Source: Lingula anatina (Eukaryota; Animalia; Brachiopoda). Taken from it: DNA of 64,000 nucleotides. The notes below the pieces were generated by a model. That model did no database searches, had not been told where the DNA came from, and saw nothing but the letters and a program-made list of their open reading frames with translations. The position numbers were made by a program, and so were the translations under genes. The stretch covers positions 24,744,401 to 24,808,400 of the forward strand of contig CM120641.1 in the NCBI GenBank assembly GCA_051362555.1. Reading direction: 5' to 3'. Each line of letters starts with the position of its first letter. Positions within the stretch are counted from its first letter, which is position 1. This document shows positions 1 to 43,850 of the stretch, piece by piece.

Positions 1-276
1 ATATGAAAAATGTTCATGATGAAATGCACTGTCATATATAGGCTGACTTTTGCGTGAGGTTAAATATAAGGCCAAATATAAAAGAAGGCAGTAATTCATA
101 CAAACTGAAAAGAAGAAATTCTGGATGTTCATTACAAATAAGTACAATATGTGACAGTAATATTAAAAGGAAAAATGTACACGAAAAAAAGACAAAATAT
201 CTGAACGGTCAATGTGCCAAAGCACAATCCCCATGTAGTATTGCACATGCAATATCTTGTTATTAAGTGCACTTAC

Positions 277-3200
277 CTCTCTCTCCTGCCTCAGATCACT
301 CTGATGCCTGATGCTCAGCTCTGACTGATCCTGTTTCATCCTGGCCACAAGGCCCTCTAAATGATGGGACTTTTGCTGCTCTAGAGCAAGTTCTGATTCT
401 ACCATTGATAATCTGTAATAACAAAGTAAATGCTTAATCATGGGACTTATTTTTCTGTTTTGGAACCAGTTCTGACTTAACTACAGACAGTCATCGATAA
501 CCTACAAATAAAGCCAAAAATTTAAAGAAAAGTGACGGCATATAAACACAGAAAAATATCATTATGTAAATGGTGCTATCTGTTTTATAGGTAAACGTAT
601 ATAACCATATGCAAATGTTAATAATGGTTTCCAAAGAGTACAAATAGAAGCTATTCTTTTTAACAAGGTTTAATAGTAAAAAATGTTACTTTAAAAACCA
701 GCTTTAACCAGTTTTAAAAAAGAAAGCATTGCCTAAGACTTACTTTGCTTTAAGTGACTTAAATGCAGCCTTCCTTTCATCCAGTGCTGACTGCAGCTGT
801 CCAATCTTGTGTGAAGTGGACCGGGTGGTTTTTCTCATGAAATCTTCCTGCTCATCAATTTTATCCATCAATTCACTCATCTGTAAGAATAGAATATATA
901 GAAAATTCATAAACCATGCAAAAAAATATGACTATGCTGGTAAAAGTCCAAGAACATCATTTAACAGCAAGAAGAGTAATATACAAAGAAAAGTCATTAC
1001 TATGAAACAGAAAATAAATAACACCAAACAATTGACAGCATTTGCAAACACAAGTATTTGTCAATCTATTCTGATGTGTGTAGCATTCGTTGATTATGAA
1101 AAAGCCTTCGACTCAGTAGAAACCCAGTATATACTGGCATCCCTGCAAGATCTAGGGATCGAAGATGGATACGTAGACGTCCTCAGAGACATATACACCA
1201 ATAGCTCTGTAACAGTCAAACTACACAAGACCACCAATAAGATCAGGATCAAGAAAGGTGTACGCCAAGGAGATACAATCTCTCCTAAACTGTTCACAGC
1301 AGCATTGGAAAGTATATTCAGGGATCTAGACTGGCAGGACAAGGGCATAAACATAGACGGTACCAGGCTCAATCACCTTAGGTTTGCAGACGACATCATA
1401 ATAGTAGCAGATGATGCAAAAGACCTCGAAGAAATGCTACAGGCGTTAGCAGATGAAAGCGCAAAAAGTGGGCTAAAGATGAACACCAGCAAGACAAAGG
1501 TGATGTTTGGACCACTAACCACCCCTTGCACAGTGAAAGTCAACACCAAAGAGATAGAAGCAGTGGAAGAGTATATATACCTTGGGCAACGGTTCAGCCT
1601 TGGTGATCGAACACTGGAGAAAGAAATCCAACGAAGGATAAAAGCAGGATGGGCAGCATATGGGAAACACAATGACATCTTCAAGAGCAACCTTCCTACC
1701 TGCCTGAAAAAGAAAGTGTTCAATGCTTGTGTGCTGCCGGCAATCACCTATGGTTCAGAGACCTGGGCACTGAATGCCTCCATGGAACACAAGCTACAAG
1801 TAGCTCAGAGAAAGATGGAAAGAATTATGTTGAACATCAATCCAAGAGAGCGGAAAACGAATGTATGGTTACGTGAACAGACCAAAGTTAAGGACGTACT
1901 GCTCACAGTTAAAGAAATGAAATGGAGGTGGGCAGGACATGTCAAAAGAATGAGGGACAATAGGTGGACAATCAGGCTTACAGAATGGACCCCAAGGTAT
2001 GGACAAAGAAAAAGAGGAAGGCCGGTCAAACGATGGAGGGATGAATTAGATGACTACTGGAAGTCTTGGAAGAAGAAACCTTGGCCAAACTGGAAATCTG
2101 AGGCTCAGGATAGGAAACAATGGAAAAAGCATGCTGAGGCCTTTGTCCAACAGTGGAACACTATAGGCTCTAAATGATGATGATGATGATTCTGATGTCA
2201 CCAAGAAATATTTTTTCGTGATAACCTGCATCTTTTTCTCTTCTTTGAGTGTCCTCAACTCACAGGATAACATGTGTGTTCGCTGATAGTAGTCATTACA
2301 CATCAGTTGACGGTCTTCATTATGACCTAAAGCTGTGTCTGGAAAAATATAAAGGTTTTTACCTCAACATCAACATGTTTCATTACATCTTACTTTTTTA
2401 CTTTCAGTTATGGTCTGAGAAGAAAATAGTCAAGTTTGTCATATTATATATATATATATAAGTATTTCCAATAATAGTCTTGAATATTTTTCCTAAAATT
2501 TTAAAAAGCCCACTATTTCCAATTAAAATCTTGACAATGGTAATTAATACACAAAATTTCAACTGGCATCAAATAAAAAATCCTATCATGTCTTAGGAAA
2601 GAGTAGAATATAAACTATCAGTTATTTGAGAAAATTTTCAAACAAAACAAAGCCCTGTTCATCTGTCAACAATGATTTTACCAATAGATTGTAAAACATC
2701 TGTAGGAATGTTGTTCCCAGACAAGCTGAGTTTGTAAATAGTTTTGTTCCTCCTCAGTGCTTCCAGGAGAGCTTGCCCTCCGATAAAACCAACATTGTTT
2801 GACCTCATATCTAAAAAAATATTTAATAAATTTCACCTAACATGAAAGTAACTCTGTTTTCAACCCTCGTAGATAATCTGTAAAAAATCTGAATGTGGTT
2901 TTATTAAAAGAGTCAATATATATCTTGCAAGTTGCTCTACAAAAAAGAAAAAAAATACACAGTTCAATTTTTACCTAATATGCCATGTCATAGACATTTG
3001 ATATCTTTCAATTTCCATCAAGAATTTTCAAATGACATTAAGCATAGCTGAGAGAGTACTGAATATATTATTCATCTGATCAAAATAATAATAATAATAA
3101 TGATAATGCACATTTCAGAACAAGACATAACTCATGTCTGCTCACCTATTGCCTGTAGTGTGGTATTCCTCTTCAAGGCAGAAGCCAGCTCCTGCGCCCC

Positions 3201-4758
3201 GTTGTGGCTAATCTGGTTGCTCCTAAGGTCAAGCTCCTTGAGGGTGGTGTTGGCAGCCAGGGCCTCACAGAATGTACCAAAGGAATTCTCTATCATGCCC
3301 ATATCATTCTGTTCCAGACAGAGACTAGGGGTACAATTACAAAAATATAACCATCTCATTCTGATTAACTAAAATTAATTCATCTAAATGATACTTTATT
3401 CACTCAGATCTTTAAGTGACAAAACATTCATAAAATCATATGCAGCTCTCTTTATGTAAATTGTTAAATGGTGCTTATTTTCAAAGGAATAAGCTAGAAA
3501 ATTGTTGAGCAACTATTACATGATATACAAATATATGAACAATTGTCAAAATAAACAGAGCACTTGTGGTTAATGTACATGTAGAAGGAATGATGTGGTC
3601 ATTACCTAGTTAAACTCTTATTATGGCGTAACATTCTGGCAAGAGCCTCAGTCCCAGTTCCTCTTATATTATTTCCCTACAAAAAATTTTATGTCAAAAA
3701 GTGATAAGCATTTACATAAAAATATATCTATAAAATAATTTAGTAAATAAAAACTTAAAATTTTTTTTTTCTTTTTTGTAAATCAGTAAAATATTTTGAA
3801 AAGATGATAAAATCTAAAGAAAAAAAAAATCATATATTTTGTGAGGAAACGTAACACAAAGAAAACTTAACATACTGTTGTGTATGTAAGTACTAAATCT
3901 TATTGATTTAAAATGAACAAAAATGTAATACATTTACTTACTTTTAAATCCAGTCTTTTACAAACCACATTTTCAGCCATCCCATAAGCAAGACTTTTTA
4001 CAGCTGCAAGTAAAATGACAAATGTGTACTGATGATAAAATAATCTGTCACAAATTATGTTATTTTGTAAAACACTTTGATCAAAACTACTTAAAAGTAT
4101 ACTGACAGATTAAGAAGGTGCTTTGTATCCTTTAGAACCTTACCATCTTCATTAAGCATACAGTTTGCCAGATTTATTTCAGTGAAAGTATGATCTGTTG
4201 CCAGCACTTTGCCAAGTATAGTACAGGTCTTTGGTGACAGACTCTCTTTGGATAGTTGAAGACTTTGTTTGCATTTTCTGGGACTTGTGGGAATACTGAA
4301 AGAAATATTTTAAATGTACACATCTGTGTGTATGTTAAGGGGGGGGAGGGTATTTGCATCTTAACAGACTACATTTAAAGTTATATATAAGTGATGTTCA
4401 AAGCCTTAATCATATATATGGCCCAGAAGGTGGAAATATTTATTAATGGTTTACTACAGTTTATGTGACTAAAAGGGAATGAAATACTGATAAAATTTAG
4501 CTGTGTGGTGCACCTGCAACCTTGTTCAGTAACCTATTAATATATACAAAACGTTTTCCAATTCTTTAATCGCATCAATATAATTAATGCAACATCATTT
4601 TGTGAAAATATTGAAATACCTGCAAAAATTAATATTTACAATATTGGGACACAAAAAACATCAAATTCTTACATTTTAAGTTGCTTCATCAAGGCATCAT
4701 GCGGTTCCACATTGTACTCCCTACACAAGCATAAGTAAGCTGACTTGAATTCATCCAT
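277..4758 (-). CDS. LRRC45: LRRC45 tandem paralog, copy B (coding exons 1-9; gene continues beyond the left window edge)
   Basis: Exons 4673-4758, 4144-4295, 3942-4003, 3606-3676, 3146-3324, 2682-2810, 2226-2338, 744-880, 277-412 have the same lengths as in copy A, with no stops or frameshifts and GT-AG retained. About 30 amino-acid differences over ~355 codons. Confidence 0.88.
1078..2188 (+). mobile_element. 5'-truncated RTE-clade LINE in intron 7 of LRRC45 copy B
   Basis: Open RT C-terminal half ([47 protein letters not shown]) ending in a (TGA)n tail. 10-bp TSD attctgatgt at 1068-1077 and 2189-2198. Empty site attctgaagt at 13318-13327 in copy A. Confidence 0.95.
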
Positions 4759-5264
4759 CGCAACACCATCTCTAGTAACTGTGAATCAGATATAAAACAT
4801 GTTATCACCAAAGATACAGGGGAAAAATACTTGAAGTACACAGTATACATGCATTTGAAAAAAAAATACATTTATTTTTCATCTCAAAAAAGTATATTTA
4901 CCACAACTTTGGTATAAAAGAAAAATGCATTTTAACACATTCACTAATATTCTTTGTGTTCATTTTGCCAAAGCAATCTATAATAATAAATAAATCAGAA
5001 TATCTGTGTGAAGTGGATTTAAGATTGTGTGATATTCTTCTGTTCAGTATGTACTGGTAACATATGGCATACTGGGTATTTACGGTGTACAATATAATCA
5101 ATTTCCAAAATGCAAAATTATCTTAAACCATCTCTCATAATCTGAATTTATGATAAACATAAAATGTCCACACTCTCTTTACAAAAGTGATCAAGAGCTT
5201 CTCTCTGAAGAAAGGAATATGAGGATGGTTATATACAGTACATGTACAATGTAGCTCTAAATAT

Positions 5265-5438
5265 GGGGGCGTCTCGATAGTCCCAAAGTTCATTGGTCCC
5301 AAGGTTCATATGCCCGAAAAATCGTAACATTTTTATCAGTTTTTTAATCAAGGGTTTGTTGGTTCGAAGGTTCTATAGTGAACATTCAGACCAATGAACC
5401 TTTGGACTATTGAACCTTGGACTATTGCTACGGCCCCC
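5265..5438. mobile_element. Foldback MITE in the 5' intron of LRRC45 copy B
   Basis: Termini gggggcgt / acggccccc, internal inverted subrepeats (gtcccaaggttca / tgaaccttggac), 7-8-bp TSD (c)taaatat on both sides. Absent from the matching site in copy A (~16215-16225). Confidence 0.8.
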
Positions 5439-5685
5439 TAAATATACTGTCACATTTCAATATAATAAGCAAATTTGGACAGCGTGGTCAAAAAAGTAAC
5501 GAACGTTTTCTCGTGTTAATTCAAATGGAAGTTATTAAACCAATACCATACCTTTTGTTTATTAAATAAGTTTATATCTTCTACACCAGAAAAATTTCAA
5601 AGCACCGCCATGTATAAACAAACCTCATTTCGATACTCCATATACGAAAGAGCAGCTTCACTCGAAAAGGAGCGAAGATTTTAAA

Positions 5686-10400: not shown

Positions 10401-13400
10401 TGTAAACACAATAAGTGGAAGGCAGTTTTACTTTTGGGCTTTATATTTAAAGAGCTGATGAATATTCATAAAACGCAGGTCAAGTTCGAAAATCAGGATG
10501 ATCGGGCCATTATTGTAGAAGTTATGCTTTTTTCTTTCACTTTTCAACATATATGCAACACTGTAAACACATTTCAAGGAAAACCGATAGGCCTGTTGTC
10601 GTGAAACTCTCAGGAATAATCGATCTTACTAAAACGGAGGTCAAGTTCAAAAATCGGCATGCAGCCTGAGTTGGAAAAGCAGTCTAATTGGCTTCTTTTC
10701 TGGAAGTTATACATTTTCAAAGTGTGAACTTGAACTCTCATGGGCCTGAAGCCTTATGCTTGTTACACATTTTACTTTCATTGGTATTACCTGTTGAGCA
10801 TAATTAAAATTTGATGTTGAATTTACAGTTTAACATAATGTACTTTTGCATCAGAATTGACAGTAGCCTATTTTGTGCATAGTTATTTCCTGCTTTTTGT
10901 CTGTACATTTGACAGCTTTGCTGCCTTGTTTACTTAATTCAAGTCAAAACAAAGTCAAAACATTATTTTACATTTTCTTTTGCAAATTAATTTGATTACT
11001 ATTTGGCTGAGATTCAATATAACTGAGTCAGCCTAGAGCTTCCACCCACCTCATCAGATCTGATCTTGTGCTTAACTGTGGCCAATTCCTCCTCAGCTTT
11101 GATCCTGTCAGCTGCTGCCTGAGATTTCAGCTTGCTCACTTCTTCTTCCAACTCCAAACGTTGCCTCTCTAGTTTGTTGATTCTTTCTCTCAGCTGCTTC
11201 TCAGTGTCATCAAAGTCTTGCTGTAGCTTGGCAATCTGATATAGAAGTTACAAGTTTTAAAATTAACAATATTCTTTTTTATAACAAATGAAACTGATGT
11301 GAAGTCTTGTTCATGTCAGTATCAGTATTAAATGAAAGTAATTCCGTACACTACAGCTAGACTCTTTTTAGTTTTTTTAAGGTGACCCGTCCACATAAAG
11401 AAGCCAAGTAAATGTAAAATCAATTAACAATCTCTGAAAATGGAATAAATATCATGACACTGTAATAAACATATTTAAAATGAAAGACCTGTCTCACCTC
11501 TCGTGTCTTGAGAGACTCCACCTCTTGTAAAATTTCTTTGTTTTTTTGCTTTTCATTATTAAATTTCTCTGCAAAGAAGAAGTAAACCATCAGACATGAG
11601 TGACAACACAAAGACAAAAGGAACTTCATTGGTAAAATAATGCTCAAAATTTACCGTACTAATTGCTTATTATGTAAAAACACTAATTATAAGAGCAAAC
11701 CTTCATATTGTGCTCCTTTAAGTTTTATGTCAGCTTGTGCATGTGTCAGCTGCTCTTTAAGATCATATATCTGATCTTGTTGCTGCTTGCACTTTCTGCT
11801 AAGTTCATCTTCCTGACAAAATAATAATGACAACAATCACGAGAAGGGATTTTCAATATGTTGATATTTGTACCAAGCAAGTAGAAAGAGAGCATGTTTA
11901 TATATAAATATTGTTTATTCATGTTAAATAGTGTTTGACCCTTGCTGGGAAGCTAAGGAATAAATAAAACATAATTAATTTAAATGACTTCTTCCATTCT
12001 CTAATTTTTTTTTTTTTTGGTCTGAAATTAAAAACTTTATCAAAACAGAACCATTAAACTATTTCAAATGTGCCATTATATTTAAACTACTTGCGATTTC
12101 AATTTACCTTAGCTTCTAGTTGCACATTTCTGTCATTAGCTTCAGATAATTCCCTTAAAAGTCTGCTTTCCACAGAGGCTCTGTCCTGAAAGCAACAGAA
12201 AGTTAATTAACAAAATATAACAAATGATACATAAAGCAATTATGAAAAATGTTCATGATGAAATGCACTGTCGTATATAGGCTGCCTTTTGCGGGAGGTT
12301 AAACATAAGGCTAAATATAAGAGTAGGCAGTAATTCATACAAACTGAAAAAAAGAAATTCTGGATGTTTATTACAAAAAAGTACAGTATGTGACAGTGAC
12401 ATTAAAAATAAACATTTACAAGAAAAATAAGATGAAAAAATCTGAACAGTCAATGTGCCAAAGCACAATCCCCATGCAGTATTGCACATGCAATATCTTG
12501 TTACTAAGTGTACTTACCTCTCTCTCCTGCCTCAGATCACTCTGATGCCTGCTGCTCAGCTCTGACTGATCCTGTTTCATCCTGGCCACAAGACCCTCTA
12601 AATCATGGGACTTCTGCTGCTCTAGAGCAAGCTCTGATTCTACCATTGATAATCTGTAATAACAAAGACAAAAGTAAATGCATAATCACTGGACTTATTT
12701 CTCTGGTTTGGAACCAGCTCTGACTTAACTATAGACAGTCATCAATAACATAAAAATAAAGCCAAAACTTTAAAGAGAAGTGATGGCATCTAAATACAGA
12801 AAAATATCATTATGTAAATGGTGCTATCTGTTTTATAGGTAAATGTACATAAACATATGCAAATGTTAATAATGGCTGCAAAAGAGTACAAACAGAAGCT
12901 ATTCTTTTTAACAAGGTTTAATAGTAAAAAAATATCACTTTAAAAACCAGTTATAACCAGTTAAAAAAAAAAGACATTGCCAAAGACTTACTTGGCTTTA
13001 AGTGACTCAAATGCAGCCTTCCTTTCCTCCAGTGCTGACTGCAGCTGTCCAATCTTGTGTGAAGAGGACCGGGTGGTCTTCCTCATGAAATCTTCCTGCT
13101 CATCAATTTTACCCATTAATTCACTCATCTGTAAGAATATAATATATAGAAAATTCATAAACCATGCAAAAAAATATGACTATGCTGGTGAAAGTCCAAG
13201 AACAACATCTAACAGCAAGAAAAGTAATATACAAAGAAAAAAATTATTATTTTGAAACAGAAAATAAATAATACCAAACAATTGACAGCATTTGTAAATA
13301 CAAGTATTTGTCATTCTATTCTGAAGTCACCAAGAAATATTATTTCATGATTACCTGCATCATTTTCTCTTCTTTGAGTGTCCTCAGCTCACTGGATAAC

Positions 13401-15721
13401 ATGTGTGTACGCTGATAGTAATCATTACTCATCAGCTGACGGTCTTCATTATGACCTAAAGCTGTGTCTGGAAAAATATAAAGGTTTTTACCTCGACGTC
13501 GACATGTTTTATTACATCTTACTTTTTTACTTTCAGTTTTGGTCTGCAAAGAAAATAGCCAAGTTTGTCATATTATACATGTAAGTATTTCCAATAATAG
13601 TCTTGAATATTTTTCCTAAAATTTTAAAAAGCCCACTATTTCCAATTAAAATCTTGACAATGGTAATTAATACACAAAATTTCAACTGGCATCAAATAAA
13701 AAATCCTATCATGTCCTGGGAAAGAGTAGAATATAGAATATCAGTAATCTGAGAAAAATTTTAAACAAAACAAGGCCCTGTTTATCTGTCAACAATGATA
13801 TTACCAATAGATTGTAAAACATCTGTAGGAATGTTGTTCCCAGCCAAGCTGAGTTTGTAAATAGTTTTGTTTCTCCTCAGTGCTTCCAGGAGAGCTCGCC
13901 CTCCAATAATACCAACATTGTTCCACATCAAATCTGAAAAAAAAATTAATAAATTTCACCTAACATAAAAGTACTTTAGTTTTCAACCTTTATAGATGAT
14001 CTGTAAAAAACCTGAATGTGGTCTTATTAAAAGAGCCAATATATATCTTGCAAGTTGCTATACAAAAGAGAGAAAAAAATACACAGTTCAATTTTTACCT
14101 AATATGCCAGGTCTTTGATATCTTTCAATTTCATTAGAGTAACCTTCAAATGACATTAAGCATGGCTGAGAGAAGTACTGAATATATTATTCATCTAATC
14201 AAAAAATAATAATAATAATGCACATTTCAGAACAAGACAAAAATCATGTCTGCTCACCTATTGCCTGTAGTGTGGTGTTCCTCTTCAAGGCAGAAGCCAG
14301 CTCCTGCGCCCCATCATGGCTGATCTGGTTGTTCCTGAGGTCAAGCTCCTTGAGGGTGGTGTTGGCAGCCAGGGCCTCACAGAATGTACCAAAGGAATTG
14401 TCTATCATGCCCATAGCATTCCATTCCAGACACAGACTAGAGGTAGAATTACAAAAATATAACCATCTCATTCTGATTTACAAAATTTAATTCATCTAAA
14501 TGATACTTTATTCACTCACTATTTGCAAAAAATTATTAAAATAAACAGAGCACTTGTGGTAAATGTACATGTAGGAAGAATGATGAGGTCATTACCTAGT
14601 TAAACTCTTATTATGGCGTAACATTCTGGCTAGAGCCTCAGTCCCAGTTCCTCTTACATTATTCCCCTACAAAAAATTTTATGTCAAAAAGTGATGAGCA
14701 TTTATATAAAAATATATCTATTAAATAATTTAGTAAATAAAAACTTTAAAATCTTCTTTTTTTTTTTTTGTATAAACAGTAAAATATTTTGAAAGATGAT
14801 AAAATCTAAGGAAAAGAAAATTATATATTTTGTGAGGAAACCTAACACAAAGAAAACCTAACATACTGTTGTGTATGTAAGTGCTAAATCTTATTGATTT
14901 AAAATGAAAAAAAATTTAATACATTTTACTTACTTTTAAATCCAGTCTTTTACACACCACATTTTCAGCCAGCCCATAAGCAAGACTTTTAACAGCTGCA
15001 AGTAACATGAAAAATGTGTGCACTAATGGTAAAATAAATAATCTGTCATATATTATGTAATTTTGCAAAACACTTTGATTAAAACCATTCAAAAGTATAT
15101 GTAGAGATTGCGAAACTGCTTTGAATCCTTTAGAACCTTACCATCTTCATTAAGCATACAGTCTGCCAGTTTTATTTCAGTGAAAGTATGATCTGTTGCC
15201 AGCACTTTGCCAAGTACAGTACAGGTCTTTGGTGACAGACTCACACTGGATAGTTTAAGACTTTGTTTGCCTTTTCTGGGACTTGTGGGAATACTGAAAG
15301 AAATATTTTAAATATACACATCTGTGTGTGTTAAGGGGGGGGGGGGGGGGTATTTGCATCTTAACAGACTACATTTAAAGTTATATATAAGTAATGGTCA
15401 AAGCCTTAAACACATATATGGTCACCTATCCAGAAGGTGGAAATATTTGTTAATGGTTAACTACAGTGTACGTGACTAAAAGGGAATAGGTGGAAATATT
15501 TATTAATGGTTAAATACAGTGTACGTGACTTTAATCACATCAATATAATAATGCAACATCATTTTGTGAAGATATTGAAATACCTGCAAAAATAATATTT
15601 ATAATATTGGGACACAAAAAACATCAAATTCTTACATTTTCAGTTGCTTCATCAAGGCATCATGCGGTTCCACATTGTACTCCCTACACAAGCGTAAGTA
15701 TGCTGACTTGAATTCATCCAT
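7422..15721 (-). CDS. LRRC45: Leucine-rich repeat-containing protein 45, intact copy A (16 coding exons, 670 aa)
   Basis: Exons assembled by hand with GT-AG boundaries and consistent phases: 15636-15721, 15142-15293, 14934-14995, 14596-14666, 14258-14436, 13805-13933, 13355-13467, 12992-13128, 12518-12653, 12108-12185, 11701-11812, 11498-11568, 11050-11235, 8222-8395, 7773-7920, 7422-7600 (2013 nt). Protein starts [19 protein letters not shown], has RI-like LRRs ([39 protein letters not shown]), then a long coiled coil ending [14 protein letters not shown]. Matches the LRRC45 sequence and architecture as I recall it. Confidence 0.93.
8548..10931 (+). mobile_element. HINE/DINE-1-like non-autonomous Helentron-type element, three head-to-tail units, in LRRC45 intron 13
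   Basis: 5' T-run plus hairpin atgtacagacac-agat-gtgtctgtacat, (gccgat/ggcgat)n microsatellite, core repeat caggtcaagttcgaaaatcagcatgatcgggcc. Units restart at ~9472 and ~10323. 3' subTIR gtctgtacat, short stem-loop gacagctttgctgcc and ttgttt end. Confidence 0.8.
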
Positions 15722-16325
15722 CACAACACCATCTGCAGCTTTCTAGTAACTGTGAATCAGATATAAAACATTTTATCACCAAAGATACAGGGAAAAAATA
15801 ATTGAAGTACACAGTACATTTGAAAAAAAAAAATTTATTTTTCATCTCAAAAAAGTATATTTACCACAACTTTGGTATAAAAGAAAAATGCATTTTAACA
15901 CATTCACTAACATTCTTTGTGTTCATTCTGCCAAAGCAATCTATAATAATAAATAAATCAGAATATCTGTGTGAAGTGGATATAAGCTTGTGTGACATTC
16001 TTCTGTTCAGTATGTAACTGTTACATTAAACATATGGCATACTGGGTATTTACAGTGTACAATATAATCGATTTCCAAAATACAAAAGTTTCCTAACCAT
16101 CCCCCATAATCTGAATTAAAAACCAACATAAAATGTCCAATCCACCTTGACAAGAGTGAACAGCTTCTCTCTGAAAAGAGGAATCTGAGAAGAAAGATGG
16201 GTACTTCACAATAGCTCTGAATACACTATCGCATTTCAAGATGATCCGCAAATTTGAACGCCGTGGTTTAAAAAGTAACGAATATTTTTTCGTGTTTATT
16301 CAAATGGAAGCTGTTACGCCAATAC

Positions 16326-16496
16326 CATACCATTTGTTTCTTAAATAAACTTACATGTATCTTTTCGACGGCAGAAAAATTTCAAACCACCGCCATGTTG
16401 ATATAAACAAGTCTCATTTCGATACTCTGCATACAAAAGAGCAGCCTCACTAACGCAATGTTGAGTGGGAAAGAGCGAACATTTAAAATGGTAAGT
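16326..16496. promoter_or_regulatory. Putative bidirectional promoter with non-coding first exons
   Basis: Local CpG retention. YY1-like CAACATGGCGG on the minus strand (16390-16400). Minus-strand donors at 16354 (GTAAG) and 16330 (GTATG). Plus-strand consensus donor ATG|GTAAGT at 16491. Confidence 0.5.
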
Positions 16497-17643: not shown

Positions 17644-18689
17644 TATAGAGCTAGCACATTATCAAATGCCTTAATTAATTTTGCTCCATTCACTTAAGGA
17701 AACTTTTGCATTTTGGAAATGAATTATTGTAAACCCAAAAAATATAATGGTAAAAGAAAATATGTAAACCAGAAAACTAAAAAAAAAAAAAAAAAAAAAC
17801 AATGTCTCAGATTTAGTGATTTTGCTTCATTCCTACTTTTTCCTGCTAGTATATCCCCCTTAACTGTAGTATGTTGCAACAGGAAGTATGGTTTTCTTGC
17901 ATGAACGGTTGGATTCCCTTATTCACATACATGTAGAAGATGCCATACTTGGAATAATATCATCATTTAGATTTTGTTGACAACTATGGATTTAATTACT
18001 GTTCATTAACAGCTCAGTGTTCATATTATCACACATTCATAATTCTGTATTGGTGCACTGTTGTTTTTGTTGTTGATGATGAGGAATTAAGACTTCTGCA
18101 TCCTTTCAAGAATGTTTTAATAGAAAAATATGAGCTTTTCTTGCCTGGCCTGCAGTATTGAACATGCCATAGCCCATAGGATCCAACATACCAAAATTAA
18201 TTATGATAGTTGTATGGGACATGTCATTGGAATGTGGTCGATGGTTTATGACCCAGCTTTACAAAACTGATAGCTTTGGGTAGTAGCAATGATGATGCTT
18301 GTTTTGACCTCTGCCTATACATTTGATTTGGAATGTCTATTTGATGTTTAAGTACTCATAATTATTTCTTTTCATGCTCTGGGTGCTACATGCACACATG
18401 TGCCATATATCACAGGATGTGGTTGACAATTTTATTTATCTGTTATATTTTGAGACCTGCCCATCCATGATATTCAAGATGAGTTTAAGCATGTAGAACT
18501 TCCCAGCGCACATCTATGCAGTGGTGCATGGTTTATGAATGGGACTTTATCAAAACTGATCATCTTGTACATTCACTGCCCATTCATACTTACTGCATGT
18601 CCAGTAGACTGAGGACGGTCCATATTTCTTTAACCATGCTTTCTCCTTTTTTTCTCCCTGATCAGATGCTGTGAATAGCAGAGTGAAAG

Positions 18690-19082
18690 TAGATAAGATG
18701 GACACTATTTGATTTCCAATCTTTATTAACTGGAAACAATGAAGGCTGAAATGCATACAAACAAACTATTAGTAAACTCAGTAATATAATAAATAGAAAA
18801 ATTTGAAATACTCAATAAAGAACTAGATTATGAAATACTGATATATGTAAATAAATGTAAGTCACCTCAGGTATAAAAAGTCCTGCACACCTCCTATCAG
18901 GGTGAAGTCCAGTGTCTGAATGATTCACTATATAGGCCTACACAGTGTGCATATAGAGAATGACATGTTCTCCAGGTAAGTACTGATGCAACATAGCCTT
19001 TGGCTATATCTAACATCTGACTAAGTACTCTTGGTAAGCAATTACCTTTGAATGAAAACTACAGTATGCTCATTATTCTCTA
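18690..19082 (-). repeat. 393-bp LTR with TAGA...TCTA termini, AATAAA near the 3' end and an internal 120-nt GT-AG intron (18746-18865)
   Basis: Bounded by the PPT and the TSD. Partial identical copies: direct at 20457-20673 and inverted at 20192-20450. Confidence 0.85.
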
Positions 19083-19120
19083 TGCCCCCCCAGTCTTTTA
19101 AACATTAAAGACGGTTAAAG

Positions 19121-19257
19121 TTAGTTTTTATTTAGTCTTACAGATCTGCGTAGTCCTTCATTTGATTCCTTTAGTCCGGGTTTGTTGTGTGGTAAAAGTC
19201 TTGTTAACATCCGTGGTGGTTTTGGAAGTGCTTTAGGAGTTTCATGAGATGGTTGTT
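19121..19257 (-). pseudogene. Gypsy pol C-terminal fragment
   Basis: QPSHETPKALPKPPRMLTRLLPHNKPGLKESNEGLRRSVRLNKN* directly before the PPT. The LRRSxR tail is typical of Gypsy integrase ends. Confidence 0.7.
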
Positions 19258-19337
19258 AATAGTGTGTTTACAATGGTATCTGCCACATCTTCTGTCTCAT
19301 AGGTGCAGTCTGGGAATGGGCACTTTACAACTGGCAT
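19258..19337 (-). pseudogene. Gypsy gag N-terminal fragment
   Basis: MPVVKCPFPDCTYETEDVADTIVNTL follows an 11-nt LTR end (19394-19404) and a short leader. It continues logically into the inverted plus-strand piece LLTIHAQSH. Confidence 0.75.
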
Positions 19338-19409
19338 GCTGGCCTGTAGGATGGACTGTTTACCGGTAGACTATGGTCATACCTGAGCCTTCATAGATAA
19401 GATGTATTG

Positions 19410-20198
19410 CTATTGACAATACATGCACAAAGCCATAATGCCACTTCCTCTCAGTCATCTACAAAGGTCAAAACTGACAAGATTCGTCGCCCCACAATAT
19501 CTACAGCGGGTACTAGTGAAGATTGGACTTACTTTCTGACTAGATGGAAAGAATATACCATAGCAACCAAAATTACTGGCCAAGATCGTGTAATACAATT
19601 ACTGGAATGCTGTGATGAAACTCTTAGGAAAAATATCACCCGCTCAGCTGGTGGAACTCTTACAAACAAAAGTGAAGAAGAGGTACTATCTGCTATCAAG
19701 AGACTGGCAGTACGTGAAGAAAATCCCATGGTTGCCCGAGTCATTCTACATGAGATGCGGCAGGACAGAGAAGAACCAATTCGTCAGTTTGGGGCAAGAA
19801 TCAAAGGTCAAGCTAGCATTTGTAAATTTACACTTAAATGCCCTAACTGTGAAACAGATGTAGATTACACAGATTGCATATTAAGGGACATTTTAAGTCG
19901 TGGCATAGCCGATAATGAAATCCAGCTAGACCTGCTTGGAAATATGAACCAGAACATGGACCTTGAAGATGTGTTCAGATTTATTGAATCTAAAGAATCT
20001 GGGAAACGTTCATCAGCGACATTAAATGCTTCCGAAGGTGCCCATGCCACTAGCTCGTACAGACGCGCTCAAAGGTATGCAAAGTCTGATAAAGCTGAGA
20101 TATGCAGTTACTGTGGGGAAAAAGGCCATGGTATTAAAGCACCATTTCGCACACGTCAGAAAATGTGCCCAGCATACAACCATATCTGCAAACACTGT
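19410..20198 (+). pseudogene. Gypsy gag main body, inverted relative to the element and truncated in the second zinc knuckle
   Basis: ORF 19407-20243: EDWTYFLTRWKEY, MHR-like QDREEPIRQFGARIK, CSYCGEKGH...CPAYNHICKHC. After CKHC the frame reads into inverted LTR sequence. Confidence 0.88.
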
Positions 20199-21039
20199 GT
20201 AGGCCTATATAGTGAATCATTCAGACACTGGACTTCACCCTGATAGGAGGTGTGCAGGACTTTTTATACCTGAGGTGACTTACATTTATTTACATATATC
20301 AGTATTTCATAATCTAGTTCTTTATTGAGTATTTCAAATTTTTCTATTTATTATATTACTGAGTTTACTAATAGTTTGTTTGTATGCATTTCAGCCTTCA
20401 TTGTTTCCAGTTAATAAAGATTGGAAATCAAATAGTGTCCATCTTATCTATGAAGGCTCAGGTATAAAAAGTCCTGCACACCTCCTATCAGGGTGAAGTC
20501 CAGTGTCTGAATGATTCACTATATAGGCCTACACAGTGTGCATATAGAGAATGACATGTTCTCCAGGTAAGTACTGATGCAACATAGCCTTTGGCTATAT
20601 CTAACATCTGACTAAGTACTCTTGGTAAGCAATTACCTTTGAATGAAAACTACAGTATGCTCATTATTCTCTAGAAAGGACTTAGTGATCCATGAGTGGT
20701 TCAATAGTATGTGGGGACAATAAATCAGTCAGAGGTAAAAGAGTTCTACAGCAAAGTTTTGGTGCAGGACAAACACAGAACAGTCTAGAGCACGGTTAGT
20801 ACATTTATTGGATCAAAAGTATTATCAGAGTATTTTTTGTTTTTGTTTTTGTTTTTTTTTTATGTTCAGGTTCGTTAAATGTTATTTGGAAGAATACTTG
20901 TTAAAAACGTAAAAACAAAGAAGACAAATAGGTAAGTATTTCAACAGTGCATTTCCATTCTAGGTTTTCTCCTTATTTTTCATAGAAAATGCTGCAAAAG
21001 AAAATTGGTATCCATTTGGTCTCGGTAACATTTATTCGT

Positions 21040-36790: not shown

Positions 36791-39183
36791 GTATGTTTGT
36801 TTTTGTTTGTATTCCTTTGATGATTTGAGATTGAGTTGACATAACAAAGTCATCCATTTACTCAATATTATTATTCTTTGTAAATTTTCCCTTTGTTACT
36901 TTGCTTTTTTCTTTGATCATTAAAGAAAATGCTTTTATGCAGGCACTTGAACAACCAGTTATCCAGACAGTGGTGCCACGCTCCTACTGCCCATCCTAAT
37001 ATGTTCTTTTGATTCCATAATGGAAAGAACATCTTTCTTTATCAACTCTATCTTTTTGTATACATGCTCTTTTTTTCTTAGATGGTTTCTGAATTTAATG
37101 GTGCTCAAAAACAAAAATAAGTTTTTCAGCAATTTATAAGCTCTTAATGTGTTTTGGGAATAAACAAAGTTTGCATGATGCATTGCTGTTTTTCTCAGCT
37201 TCCTGTCTTCTTTTCCCCCTTTTCACTCACATACAAGGAGAAATGAACAAACTATGGTTGCATCACAAGTATGTTGTTTCAGTGAAGTTTAACTCAAACT
37301 GGGTATCTTTTACACTTTCGGCTTTGAGTAGGTTTGTAGTATGATTTTAACAAAAACAGCCAGAGGGCAGCTCGCTGTTGGTCGCTGTTGACTTTTCTTT
37401 TACTCCACAATCTCCATCAGAGCTTATTTCTCTCTGCTTGGCTTATGTACTTACTATTTACTACTATTTTATTGTCTTTATAGAAACTAGCGTGGTTGTG
37501 ACCCTAAGTGGTTTATTTGCCTCTGGGCAGAAAAGCATAACGTAGCTAGTATTAAATGCAATATCATCATGATTTAGAGGATACAGTGTGTGTAATGGGA
37601 AAGTAGATGAAATGTGTCCATCTGAATTTTAAAACTGTTGCACAGCTGCTCTAACAGCAGTAGTGGTGATTCAGAATGTCGAAGACATGTTTTTTCCAGA
37701 CACTAGGCTTTTTTTCTACATTTTTTAAAAGTATAATGTTGCAGGGGAAATTTTAAGCTTAGTTAGGAAACCAGGTATACACAAATTTGGACAATAGCAT
37801 CCTCAATTAGCAATGACTGTGAGGTGATTATCAGTTCCTGAAATCAAGAACTAACACAGACAGTTTGGCATTTCATAAGGTTTTTTATGTATGATTATTT
37901 TCCCAGCCAGTTGTAGAGAATCACAATTTTAATCCAGTAAGATATGCCCAAATGCCTGACAGGAGTAATGCCTCACAGTCAAACAAATGAGGCTGAACTT
38001 TGAATGGAGTGCCAATCTTCTCTGTGATGTCTTTTTGATGTGCTGCTTCTGTAGGACTCTGCCAGCAGGTAGCAGCAGAAATGTTTGCCAACTATTTCAA
38101 ATATTGGTATTATCATACCCTCTTTAGCATGATTTCCCTCAGCTTGCCTTTTTTTAATGATCAAAGTGTACATTTTAGACTCATCTCGCAACCCCTTCCT
38201 CACAGAGAACAAATGGGAATTGTCATGCTCTTTTTAACATGCACCATTTATTATAGGTAGTTAAAGAACTGTGTGAAAATATACTGAACCTGTTTAGAAA
38301 CTTATTGTGTTTGATTGGGCTGGTAAGTATTTTCACAGAATCGTGCTTCACTCTTGTTGGAGATGGTGGATGGGATTTTGCTGAAAGACATTATTTTCGC
38401 TTTTTTTTTTTCATATATGATTTAATCAATCAACAGTCAGGTTTAGGGCATAGACTATGTGTAGTAGAGGGCAGAATCAAGTCTGCTGACTCCCAGGCTT
38501 GTTTGATATGGTGCTGGATAATCGTCAAGCAAAGAAATTTCTGTGTCTAATAAGCCTCAAGAGCTTTGAATCTCTGTCTGTAAGGCTGAGTGTTCTTGGT
38601 AGATATATCACACCTGTGCAGTGTTATGGAATGCATCATAACCATGCAAGCCATTATATGATCAAAGCTGAAGTAAAGAACAGTATTACTATAATTAGTA
38701 TAACATATCTAGGCAATTGCTCCATTTTCTGTACCGTAAAATGGCATTTTAACAAGATTATATCCTGTGTAGCTCATTCTGAAATTACATTTTGCCAGAA
38801 ATTGTCTTGGAATCTCCAGCTTATGTTCTTAAGTAATTGCAACAAAAGAAAATCATTGTGTATTATATTTTTTGTTTCAGGAGGAACAATGGCCAATGAA
38901 GAAGTCCCATGGTACGGGGGCATCCATGCAGTGTACCACAGACATTGAGGATATGCCTCTGCATAACTTGTGATGGGACATTTAACCGAAGGTTATCCAA
39001 AAACTAACTTCCAAGGAAAATGTCAGTGGTGAAATAACATTGCCCTTACTCCCACAAATTGTGCAGAGGTTAGTGTGGAAGATTTCAGTTTTGGAGGCCT
39101 CAGGAAAGTTTTGAATGAGGGGTTAGCTGCATGTAGTTTGGCCCAACCGAGTTTCAGACACTGCCAGCCAACACAAACACACC

Positions 39184-42100
39184 ATGGAGAGCAGTCCACA
39201 GAGACCAAGTATAGAAACCAGCACACATGATCACAGTTCTGCCTCCATTGGAGCCAATACCAAGGTGCAAGAACAGGAAAGTCTTGTCAGTGGTATTGAA
39301 CAGAAAAACATGGAGGTGCAGTGTTTCTCTGACAGCCATGCCAGCAGCAGCAGCAGCAGCAGTAGTAGACCACATCTACGCAAACAGCGGCCAGTGGAAC
39401 AACCTGCTCTGTTATTTGAGGATGAAGATGAGGAGATACCAGCAGTGCCATCTGCTGATCCTTGTATTGTTCCTGCACTTTCGGATCAAAGCAGTATTGA
39501 TGCTGATAAAGATGCAGCAGAAGCATATTTAGATCCAAATGTGGTGAATTTTTTTCTGAGGCCTGAATCTTCATCAAGTGGTTTAAGTCAACAGAATGAA
39601 GGTAAAAGAAGGCCTGTCAGTTCCAGCACCAGTGAAGAAATGAATGAGACAAGTGAAAGTTGGCTGATGACAACCAAAGGCAGTTTGGAACTAAAACAAA
39701 CTTGGGTGCCTAGTAGTCCGCGGCCCTCACTAAAACATGGGCAAATGCTACGTTCGCCTAGTGCCAGTCCCTCCAGGCAGAGTGTAGGTCTGGACCACTT
39801 AGATAACTTGTGTCGTCTGATGGAACAATTGGCTGGATTAAAGGAAGAAAACAACAATCTTCGTAAGAAGTGCTCATATCTTGAAGATACTAAAATATTA
39901 CTTCAAGCTCAGAATGAAATGCTGGCCAATAGTGCTTCTGATGCAGTCTCTCATGTTTCTCGTCAGAACAAAGTTGACAGAAAAGAGAGCGCTCGCTCTC
40001 GAAAAAGACTTCCTAGTGCAGATTTCGGAGTTGAGGAAGCCATCAGACATTCGGATCTTCAACTTGTAAAAAGAAGAACTCAGTCAACTGGTTCACTAGA
40101 CATCACTGACAATGATGTTTTTCTGCCCGGTGAAGAAAGTGCCAATAAAAAACAAAAACTCATCAAACAGTCCTCAGACGTCCCCTTGTCAAAGCATGAA
40201 AAATCAAAATCTTCCCAGGACCCAAGATTCAAGAGCAAAAAAATCACCAAGTGGGAGAGGGTGAAGATGGTGTTTACGGGGAAAGAACCAGTTAATAAAC
40301 TCCAGGTTCCAAATGAGTCCTCGGCAGACATGAGGTCTGATGACAGCGGGATGGGAGAGGAGGGGAGCCATCAGAAACTGGATACCTGCAGTGAGCCTAC
40401 AACTCCCATGGTCATTGAGAGGGCAACATCACATGTTGATAATGATGAAGATCCAGAGATGGCACAAGTTGTCTGGATGAGGGACCCTGGTAGGTTTATA
40501 CTGGTATCAGGGTACCCATACTTTCTAATTTCTCTATATTTAATTACATTAGTGGCCTTTTTTATAATTGAAGATAATCCTGGTTCCAAATTCAGCAGCA
40601 CTGTGGTCAGATGCTGTGGGTTTTAAAAGATTTTCAGCAATCAAAAGTTACATTATTTTTCTTTTTCAAGCATAAAGTTGAATTAATTTAATCATTGGTA
40701 AAAAAAAATCAGCTTCAGCCTTGTCTTATCCAAAAATGGACATACCGGTTATATAACTGTAAATGTTATGTATAATTATTGCATTGAATTCATTAATCTG
40801 AGCATCAAAATGTTGGGGCAAATTACTTGAAAAAAGTATTTTCATCAATGGCATATTTTACATGCCTCCCTGTGATTGTTGTGGAAGGAAGCTTTGGCAG
40901 ACAGTTGAGATAAAACACTTTATCAATGTTTGTTATGACATTCTTAAAGCCTTAGTTGATATCATATTTTAGAATAACTCCTCAAATGCCAACCTTTCTT
41001 CATTGTTTTGCTTTCTCCCATAAGGAAAAGTTCAGAAACACTATGAGATAATTTATATTATACAATTCCATTAATACTTTACCAATCTTATTGTTATTTT
41101 GCATTTTTGTCCAGTGATAAATAAGTCATTGTTGTTTCATTCCAGCCCAGTTGACAGTTTTATTTGCATGTTAATGATTTCTCCTGGTGAAGTGAGAGTC
41201 CATATTTTTACAAGAGATAAAAGTGGAATTTCTTTTTAATTTTAATTAAATTGATCGATCTACTTTTTTCTGAATCATGATGCTTTTTATGTACAGACAC
41301 AGATGTGTCTGTACATATTGCCATCACCTGCGTCTGTCGTCGCCGTCGTCGCCGATGCCGATGCCGATGGCAATGCCGTCGCCGTGCACTTTCACTGTAA
41401 ACACGATAAGTGGAACACAGTTTTATTTTTTGGTTTTATATTTACAGAGCTGATGAATATTCATAAAACGCAGGTCAAGTTCAAAAATCAGCATGATCGG
41501 GCCATTATTGTAGAAGTTATGCTGTTTTATCACTTTTCAGCATATATGCAACCCTGTAAACACATTTTAAGGAAAACCGTTAGGCCTGTTGTCATGAAAC
41601 TCACAAGAGTAATCAATCTTACTAAAATGCAGGTCAAGTTCGAAAATTGGCATGATCGGGCCACTATTTTACTAGTTATGCTGTTTTTTCCTTTTTTTTC
41701 AGCATATGTGCAACACTGTAAACACAATATAAGAAAAACAGATGGGCCAATTGTCATGAAAGTCACAGGAGGGGTCAATTTTACTAAAATGCAGGTTGAG
41801 TTCGTAAATCAGCATAATCGTGCCATTATTTTAGAAGTTATGCTGTTTTTTCACATTTCCTCAGATTCAATTCTTAGGCATGTTAACAGTCTCATTATTA
41901 AACTAATAAGATACGTAAAAGTGTTTGTTTGACATTTCCTGCATCTTTACAACATTGTTAGTTGATTATGTAAAACTGATGGTAAACTTGTTATCGTGTA
42001 TTGTGTAATAAAGTTTCAAAAATAGAAATAAACTCATATCATTGCACTTTGTCAGATTCAATCATCCACTATGTTCAGAATCTCAGAATGGAGGAAATTG

Positions 42101-43850
42101 GACATTTAACATTGTTCTATTGATATTTTTCCAATATCATTAATTTTCTTAGTTGATCATATAAAAATGGCAGTAAACTGTTCATTTTGTTTTATGTTAA
42201 AAAAGTGTTAAAAATGGAAATAAACCCATTTCAGAACAGTGCTGTCTTGTTAAAATTTGATGTTGAATTTGCAGTTTAACATTATGTACTTTTGCATCAG
42301 AATTGGCAGTAGCCTATTTTGTGCATAGTTATTTCCTGCTTTTTGTCTGTACATTTGACAGCTTTGCTGCCTTGTTTTACCATTTGTATGCAACATGTGC
42401 ATGCTTTTAAGCACCACTGAAAATAATCCAATTTAGAAAGCCAGAGCAAATGATGTTGTGGCCTATGTTTTCAAACTCATTAAAGATTTATTTTGGAGAG
42501 CAGCAGATCTTGGGTCATTGAAAGAAAACACTTCACAGCTAGTGTTCACTGAATATATCTGCCTAACAAAATTACGTATCACCAAGAATGTGGCAATATA
42601 TTTTTAATATTACTGAAGGCAATAAGACTGGCGTCTAGAGCATTTGATTTCAATATAGGTAGAAGAAAAAAAGGGTGGAAGTAGCTTAAATTTGATTCAA
42701 TTTTTGTGAAAGATGTAAACATACACACCTCGTAGATAAGGAGTTCATGATGTATTGCCTCCCAGGTACATCCTTCTCTCCAAGCTTTGTTCTCATGTCA
42801 CAGTCTGCTGATTTGATGTTTAAAAATATATCAAATTAAATTTTGTTGCACAGTACAGTCATTGTATGGTTTGATTTTTAAACCTGTCTTAGAAGCAGGT
42901 ATTTTGCAGTCATTGTACATAAATTTGATGTTTTCCAGGTTGGGAAGAGCAGGGGACTGTTCTCCACCCTGGTGCTTCTGACGATGCCTGCCTGGACAGC
43001 CTGATGAAGTCCGCTCCGTCCACCACAGTGGCTGACCAAGTGTCCACTTACCTGGACATCGACACCATCAGTCTCAAGTCCAGTCCAGTCATGTCGCGCA
43101 GGCATACATCTGGGTCATCCAAGCACAGTCAGGTGTCTCTGCGCAGCACCTCCCCACACAGACATAAAGGAGAAGAGATGGAGCACCTGTCTCGTCACCC
43201 TGGAGGTGGGATACATCATGCTAAGACTGCCTGGGGTCGGGTCAAAGATATCATACATACTAGAAAGGACAGCATCAGGCGTAGGGGGCATAAAATAACT
43301 GACCATGGGAAAGGGACAGAGTACTACTCTGATGGCGACTATGTAGAGTACTATGATGAAGGAAGTCCTGTGCCTAAACAGAAGTTCAGCAGACGATTGG
43401 ATACATCTGTAAGGTCACATGACAGTTCGTCTCTACGGAGTCCCAGAGGGTCACCACATACACTGAGAAAGCAGGGATCTTCTGGAGGTATGCCCTGTGC
43501 GATTGTTTGGGAAAGTTTTATTATTTGCTTGGTAACAAATTAAAGACAAAATATCGAAAAGCTTGAGATTCCTGGAAAGACTTCATTTTGACTTTTAAAA
43601 ACATTTTTTGTCATTATTTTGCTAGTGTATTAATGATGTGGGAAAGGTATAAAAAATATAATAAGATATTATAGAAAAAATGACTCAAACAATTCTGTTA
43701 AGACTGACTGGCTAATGTTAGAAGCAATTCTAATGATACAGAAAACATAGATGAAGATCATATATAAAGATCTAGCTCGCTGCAAATTCTCTCTCTCTCT
43801 CTCTTTCTCTTTCTCTCTCTCTCTCTCTCGTGCGCGCATGCGCGTGCACA

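Follow-up and report, generated by a model that had tools for sequence, protein, structure and literature searches.

To our knowledge, LTR retrotransposons with proven priming take their primer either from a tRNA of the host or from the 5' end of their own unspliced RNA. In the portions of the literature drawn on here, self-priming is reported for Tf1/sushi, Tcn1 and TAR elements (PMC6317226, PMC7175516, PMC11042837, PMC6238403, PMC3601003, PMC6934838). In Tf1, 11 bases pair with the primer-binding site (PBS); in the model given in the cited excerpt, RNase H cleaves the RNA duplex (PMC7175516). Roughly half of the Tf1 cDNA retains a PBS copy at its end, according to the passage cited (PMC11042837). 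A primer made across a splice junction was looked for in the excerpts available from the open-access literature (outside subscription journals and Repbase reports), and none was found.

Here we describe a Gypsy-type insertion in the window, i.e. the whole stretch of 64,000 nt of Lingula anatina DNA that was analysed. Sequence comparison and modelled RNA folding suggest that in the family of this element, and in a second one represented by the loci L058, L059 and L065, the primer is probably completed by splicing.

Structure of the insertion

The insertion comprises the following features (window coordinates, in the order in which the element is read):

18690-20673, minus strand: whole insertion, a rearranged, non-autonomous Gypsy-type LTR element with TA..TA ends
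20457-20673, minus strand: positions 1-217 of the 5' LTR, truncated exactly at the donor site according to the repeat comparison
20450-20465, minus strand: fold-back junction, in which the exact letters of the spliced primer run on into LTR sequence of the minus strand; the same joint occurs in three reads of the RNA run X4, possibly from this very allele
20192-20465, plus strand: inverted copy of LTR positions 135-393 plus PBS, with the putative intron at 20275-20394 and the PBS at 20451-20465
19410-20199, plus strand: inverted gag body, with 259 protein relatives at E<=1e-10
19394-19404, minus strand: LTR end before the PBS, the last 11 nt of an LTR by repeat comparison
19379-19393, minus strand: PBS, which starts with TGA and can pair with the predicted splice junction; 7 reads from 3 RNA runs join it to the LTR
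19257-19337, minus strand: gag start, the first 27 codons, resembling the N-termini of relatives
19121-19256, minus strand: tail of the integrase region, directly abutting the gag start (internal deletion); reads of other copies depart from the window at 19256
19083-19099, minus strand: polypurine tract, an AAGACT-G-run pattern shared with relatives, where it stands ahead of their LTRs
18690-19082, minus strand: complete 3' LTR, 393 nt, a direct repeat with 20457-20673 and an inverted repeat with 20192-20450

The 1,984 nt from 20673 to 18690 represent one insertion event, flanked by an identical target duplication of 5 bp (18685-18689 and 20674-20678), and the LTR repeat copies within it are 100% identical to each other. 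The 393-nt LTR, the 5-bp duplication and the polypurine tract are Ty3/gypsy marks; pol is missing from this copy. In element sense, the 5' LTR runs to position 217 and is followed by the inverted block (PBS positions 6-1, LTR positions 393-135, gag body), then by the 11-nt LTR end, the PBS, 27 gag codons, the integrase tail, the polypurine tract and the 3' LTR. The gag sequence is broken at the same codon by inversion and deletion (window 19410 and 19257), and these switch points lie on microhomologies of 5-9 nt. Upstream of the PBS at 19393 the LTR comprises 11 nt only, and a second copy of LTR end plus PBS lies at 20440-20465 inside the inverted block. Inversion and deletion are one multi-switch event, the product of which nonetheless integrated with exact ends.

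The 16-nt 'spliced' junction already exists as DNA at 20465-20450, and this first junction of the insertion, read as DNA, resembles a spliced primer extended by minus-strand synthesis. Since a template switch on a 9-nt homology yields identical letters, the fold-back junction is consistent with the splice model but is no proof of it. The Tf1 primer is reportedly not removed, as the title of one paper has it.

Elsewhere in the window, positions 1-5600 and 12240-16400 hold two copies with 85-96% identity, including a LINE-type reverse transcriptase (RT) frame (708-2177). Long host-like exons lie on opposite strands at 39127-43543 (plus) and 45945-52454 (minus); no Pfam match was obtained for the two that were scanned.

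An intron-like segment splits the complement to the PBS

Within the complete LTR, the following features surround the sequence complementary to the PBS:

18928-18934, minus strand: TATA-like motif, with a start predicted from the sequence near 18903 and an exon 1 of ~38 nt
18866-18874, minus strand: putative end of exon 1, the complement of PBS positions 7-15; 0/9 variant sites in RNA reads of other copies
18746-18865, minus strand: GT-AG intron-like segment of 120 nt; 14 variant sites in its 111-nt interior, 0 in donor +1..+6 or CAG
18768-18774, minus strand: branch-point-like motif TACTAAT, whose branch A lies 24 nt before the segment end; a variant in other copies preserves the branch A
18739-18745, minus strand: exon-2 part of the predicted primer, of which 6 nt pair with PBS 1-6 and the seventh with the last LTR base
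18722-18727, minus strand: AATAAA, 18 nt past the acceptor

The segment 18865-18746 has a GC content of 22% vs 39% upstream and displays the hallmarks of a U2-type intron, i.e. a GT donor (GAG/GTGACT, whose C at +5 counts against the splice reading), a branch motif, a pyrimidine tract and YAG (acceptor TTTCAG/). Once these 120 nt are removed, the LTR carries a 16-nt complement to its own last base plus the 15-nt PBS; in the unspliced LTR only two 9-nt halves match the PBS, with AG common to both. The LTR holds 218 GT..AG pairs of 50-300 nt, and the 16-nt match results from only one of them, the next best giving 10 nt. Shuffled U3 sequences produce the 9-mer followed by GT at a rate of 5.5e-5 (200,000 shuffles). 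In RNA reads of other copies, variants occur at 0/25 signal positions vs 14/111 interior positions (p 0.05); the conservation of the signal positions is not significant when compared with the whole LTR (p 0.18).

This arrangement had been proposed in a first-pass annotation, which described an LTR end (19404-19394) followed by a PBS without the usual TGG (19393-19379), and an AT-rich segment with donor, TACTAAT, acceptor and downstream AATAAA. Re-reading of the sequence confirmed all of these at their places, and recomputation reproduced both the 16-nt spliced match, with its uniqueness among the 218 pairs, and the two 9-nt unspliced halves.

Other donor-like sequences are present in the LTR and close to it. 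A stronger-looking donor (AAG/GTAATT) lies at window 19045 (minus), LTR position 38, 300 nt upstream of the acceptor, and would add almost no PBS pairing. The PBS itself contains a donor-like CAG/GTATGA at window 19382 (minus); located just past the 5' LTR, such a donor could keep the poly(A) signal of that LTR silent, as happens in HIV-1. The antisense LTR strand holds the perfect-consensus donor CAG/GTAAGT at window 18976 and 20567 (plus).

Probable self-priming in related elements

Named relatives among the 259 gag matches come from oyster, mussel, stony coral, soft coral and a fish; a search of viral contigs for relatives found 0. We took 87 relative loci, of which 80 (of 151) were from metagenomes and 7 from genome contigs. 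The pairing scan yielded rows from 76 of the 87, and removal of 11 with cut or unclear junctions and of 22 near-duplicates left 43 loci, corresponding to 37 gag clusters (families). In complete relatives, gag and pol share a single frame of ~1,600 codons that encodes RT, RNase H and integrase in the order seen in Gypsy elements, as found in the pol regions of L059 and L021.

The PBS of these elements is complementary to their own LTR, starting at the first base after the LTR, and the complement is exact over 10-19 nt in 38 of the 43 loci. Its mean length, which includes two low values from misplaced PBS anchors, is 12.7 nt vs 4.6 nt in 1,806 cross-family pairs, and 38 different 9-nt PBS starts are present among the 43 loci. 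With the PBS anchor picked by best pairing, PBS positions 1-10 are paired in 35-36 of 36 families, and all four pair types occur at several positions. Of the 17 loci with two LTRs, 15 have a PBS start no more than 4 nt away from the LTR end as defined by the repeats. LTRs end in TA in 35 families and in GA in the other 2, and TA..TA ends with an exact 5-bp duplication were found in 6 of the 17 two-LTR relatives. An ordinary PBS beginning with TGG was looked for and is present in 0/37 families. The covariation of PBS and own LTR supports the earlier claim that the element primes itself, and this strong comparative evidence from the sequences makes self-priming in the clade very probable.

Several relatives show further peculiarities around the primer. 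L020, L021, L033 and L035 have a second PBS-like copy in the LTR, 30-45 nt before the primer, which is able to pair with the primer across the acceptor, possibly as a competing hairpin. In L023, L025, L037, L043, L052, L053, L061, L082, L083 and L086, PBS positions 13-15 ask for GAG and the LTR has CAG (10/10); this conserved mismatch would be compatible with a G from the cap, with the end of a host exon or with a leader. Concerning the genomic context, L038 (471-3716) and L030 (4990-5030) are nested in or adjoin BEL/Pao elements, and the BEL element adjoining L030 has an ordinary TGG PBS. L081-L087 are animal-type retrotransposons within records titled as bacterial genomes, probably host contamination.

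Splice signals in the relatives

A pyrimidine tract with YAG 6-31 nt before the 3' end of the primer is present in 27 of 37 families vs 17% of control windows (p 2e-13), and a branch motif in 17 of 33 YAG-bearing families vs 20% of controls (p 7e-5); since the families are kin, both values overstate independence and are too small. Among the 33, 25 have the YAG at a distance of 10-14 nt from the primer end. Across the clade, the primer is an unsplit stretch of 10-14 nt immediately behind a 3' splice site, mostly donor-less. Some relatives have just 35-55 nt of LTR ahead of the AG. Of those with a known LTR start and an acceptor, 11/24 have no GT at least 45 nt upstream within the LTR, and a donor improving the pairing by 5 kcal/mol was found in 1/24 acceptor-bearing relatives.

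As most relatives are donor-less and their primer is unsplit, splicing within the LTR is no clade-wide gate of priming. One refuting condition named in the first-pass annotation, relatives that keep the PBS but not the splice signals, thus applies by half: PBS pairing and acceptor are kept in the relatives, but the donor is absent in most. The chief puzzle is that most members of the clade carry, ahead of the primer, an acceptor without a donor.

Individual loci deviate from this scheme. L046 has a 6-nt primer after the AG without a pairing-improving donor, and in L047 the pairing reaches into the acceptor itself; both observations count against the splice model. The acceptor signal is weak or absent in a clade with long primers of 12-19 nt (L002, L009, L011, L016, L018, L045). 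For L008, L047 and L083 apparent donors (extensions of 4-5 nt) were dismissed as chance matches, since their positions fall beyond the probable LTR. Flanking ORFs of the relatives, scanned for orientation with regard to exon trapping (87 of 117), gave host-type matches on both strands.

A second family with a split primer

A split primer joined by a GT-AG intron was found only in the window family and in L058/L059/L065. The latter have a 310-nt LTR with a 147-nt predicted GT-AG intron, and their primer combines 8 nt that follow the acceptor with 6 nt supplied by the end of the exon (shuffling gives p 0.004); its letters differ from those of the window. Alignment of L059 with L065 showed a donor block identical in 15/15 columns, compared with 58/101 in U3 and 84/128 in the intron interior; other conserved runs of 13 are also present. 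Both families have long LTRs, a donor of their own and a PBS reaching across the junction, and the primers behind the acceptors of these two families with a useful donor (6 and 8 nt) are two of the shortest. Quick gag trees, from which 4 rows were dropped for short frames, separate the two families. A single clade is not rejected (p-AU 0.72, tested with 22 relatives), so that the sequence data fit one or two origins of the split primer.

Predicted folding of the primer region

In the folded spliced RNA all 15 primer-PBS pairs form (p 0.75-1.0), and a predicted hairpin with AATAAA in its loop stacks on the primer duplex. The calculated energy of a 20-nt duplex changes from -14.2 kcal/mol unspliced to -28.7 kcal/mol spliced in the window and from -13.6 to -18.7 kcal/mol in L059. 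The duplexes of the relatives range from -10.2 to -29.4 kcal/mol (median -18.3), and the unspliced value of the window lies inside this range.

In unspliced RNA, the exon-2 half still forms its 8-bp duplex (p 0.74-1.0). The exon-1 half behaves differently: with 45 nt of downstream sequence, its pairing probability in the window, L059 and L065 is 0.00-0.15 unspliced (<=0.03 for the window, <=0.15 for L059/L065) vs 0.9-1.0 spliced. In a short fold, with the RNA cut at PBS position 15, both halves are paired and the intron is looped out (p 0.45-0.95). Since the exon-1 half is predicted to pair after joining and not in unspliced RNA with downstream sequence, the conserved exon end would be useful mainly after covalent joining.

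RNA reads

Of nine RNA runs labelled with the same species, all but X3 were used, 6-30% of each being read; these eight runs and gave 138 reads on 18600-19410 and 91 reads on 19405-20465. LTR-end-to-PBS joints are present in 7 reads from 3/4 runs, some from copies that are ~5% diverged, so the PBS is genuine, and the suspicion that it might be a rearrangement product of the window copy is removed.

Among the 229 reads of the 8 runs no splice joint was found, a joint requiring 3 reads in one run. Coverage of the 120-nt segment is even in X7 and X8 and partial in another five, and in several runs reads pass unspliced across donor and acceptor. The reads of 5' LTRs cannot be separated from those of 3' or solo LTRs, and many stem from LTRs with other flanks. 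Because of the low depth, the mixed LTR origin and the need of the splice model itself for unspliced 3' LTRs, this negative result of the proposed junction-read search is a weak test. Even so, the result argues that LTR transcripts are not all spliced efficiently. The proposal that splicing builds the primer draws its support in the two families from sequence, conservation and folding. Its stricter form, according to which the RNA must be spliced, goes further than the data: the reads gave no joint, unspliced RNA is predicted to form an 8-bp duplex, and most relatives combine PBS pairing and acceptor with the lack of a donor.

Proposed mechanism and alternative explanations

We consider it moderately probable that the element primes itself on its own LTR RNA and that host splicing of the 120-nt LTR intron lengthens the primer duplex from 8 to 15 bp. 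The 5' LTR transcript would be spliced with removal of the 120-nt segment, and the spliced junction would pair with the PBS. RNase H would then cut the RNA duplex opposite the LTR end, similar to Tf1, and minus-strand synthesis would begin at the LTR end. The intron would be handed on via the 3' LTR, which stays unspliced and would serve as template for all sequence 5' of the cut. That intronless LTRs have not displaced the others counts against this model, which gives no reason for it.

Self-priming might also proceed without splicing, if the RNA starts at or passes the AG (with the YAG acting as initiator or helping polyadenylation), priming falls to the 8-bp duplex, and the upstream 9-mer serves as a clamp with the segment looped out. 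The unspliced exon-2 pairing, the looped-out form in the short fold and the 229 reads without a joint agree with this reading, as does the L023-L086 group, in which pairing begins exactly at the A of TCAGT, presumably an initiator-like motif. We nevertheless regard it as unlikely, as it leaves the GT exactly at the complement end in two families and the branch-motif enrichment unaccounted for, the conserved L059/L065 block hardly pairs unspliced, and the clamp disappears once downstream sequence is included in the fold. Alternatively, the upstream 9-mer could be the relic of an old fold-back like that at 20457, with a coincidental intron look on top of the donor-less acceptor of the clade. The window does show this 9-nt homology used in template switching, and the donor is missing in most relatives; that the complement ends at 9 nt and is followed by GT, that variants spare the 9-mer while the interior drifts, and that a second family has the same design in other letters make such a relic improbable.

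Two further explanations have very little in their favour. If only the first splicing step took place, a free exon 1 with its 3' OH on PBS 7-15 could prime directly, and the 5' LTR indeed stops precisely at the donor, beyond which a copy of PBS 6-1 and of the LTR end follows. Synthesis would in that case begin 6 nt outside the LTR, yet the ends are precise with a 5-bp duplication, and there would be no need for the exon-2 pairing that 36/36 families retain, which renders this route highly improbable. Equally slight is the chance that the PBS binds a host tRNA, a tRNA half or another small RNA. The 64-kb window holds no tRNA for comparison, which leaves room for such a partner; against it stand the lack of TGG in 37/37 families, the 38 different PBS starts that each match their own LTR, and an Rfam scan with 4 matches, all far below threshold and none near it.

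A wider reading is conceivable, which we put forward as doubtful as a whole: an entire clade of marine-invertebrate Gypsy elements may tie priming to the spliceosome. Its short-LTR members would be promoter-poor exon traps, with an LTR that starts as the 3' end of an intron and a 5' exon borrowed from host transcripts or from a spliced leader, and its long-LTR members would supply their own exon 1, with a PBS evolved to read the junction. Replication would be restricted to RNA that has lost the intron from its 5' LTR but kept it in its 3' LTR, and the fold-back at 20457 would be the fossil of a retained spliced primer.

Comparison with known systems

A splice-completed primer would allow identical LTRs to take on different roles at either end of the RNA, would place retrotransposition under host splicing control and would account for LTR elements of marine animals without a detectable PBS. 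It would also provide a testable annotation rule, namely to seek the PBS partner across a splice junction.

The Mag lineage (A, B and C clades, MolGy3, MolGy11) shares with the window clade marine invertebrate hosts, a single gag-pol frame, the order RT, RNase H, integrase and a style of gag knuckle that we take to be Mag-like. The ends differ, being TG..CA in Mag A and Mag C as listed in Table 3 of PMC3601003 and TA..TA in the window clade. The biv-TRIM elements of bivalves, in the portion of text that describes them (PMC6934838), have the polypurine tract GGGGAGA, as in many relatives, no canonical PBS and short repeats; this comparison is by description, and kinship is a lead. Tcn1, TAR (plants) and the fungal GalEa hairpin site resemble the window clade in a PBS without tRNA and in priming inferred from sequence (PMC6317226, PMC6934838), but belong to other lineages and hosts, and the cited excerpts mention no splice step.

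The closest likeness in priming is to Tf1/Tf2 of Schizosaccharomyces pombe and the Tf1/sushi group, where, according to the excerpt cited, the PBS likewise complements the element's own LTR RNA (PMC7175516), and a hairpin beside the duplex, here predicted, adds to the similarity. Tf1/sushi elements end in TGT..ACA (PMC3601003, as given in Table 3), in contrast to TA..TA in the window clade, and no chromodomain family was detected at E<=0.001 in the 2/2 full-length relatives scanned, so that two chromovirus marks are missing despite the Tf1-like priming; as its ends also differ from those of Mag A and C, we leave the clade unassigned. The Tf1 primer is formed by the first 11 bases of unspliced RNA, whereas the predicted primer of the window clade lies behind a 3' splice site and would span an intron in two of the families.
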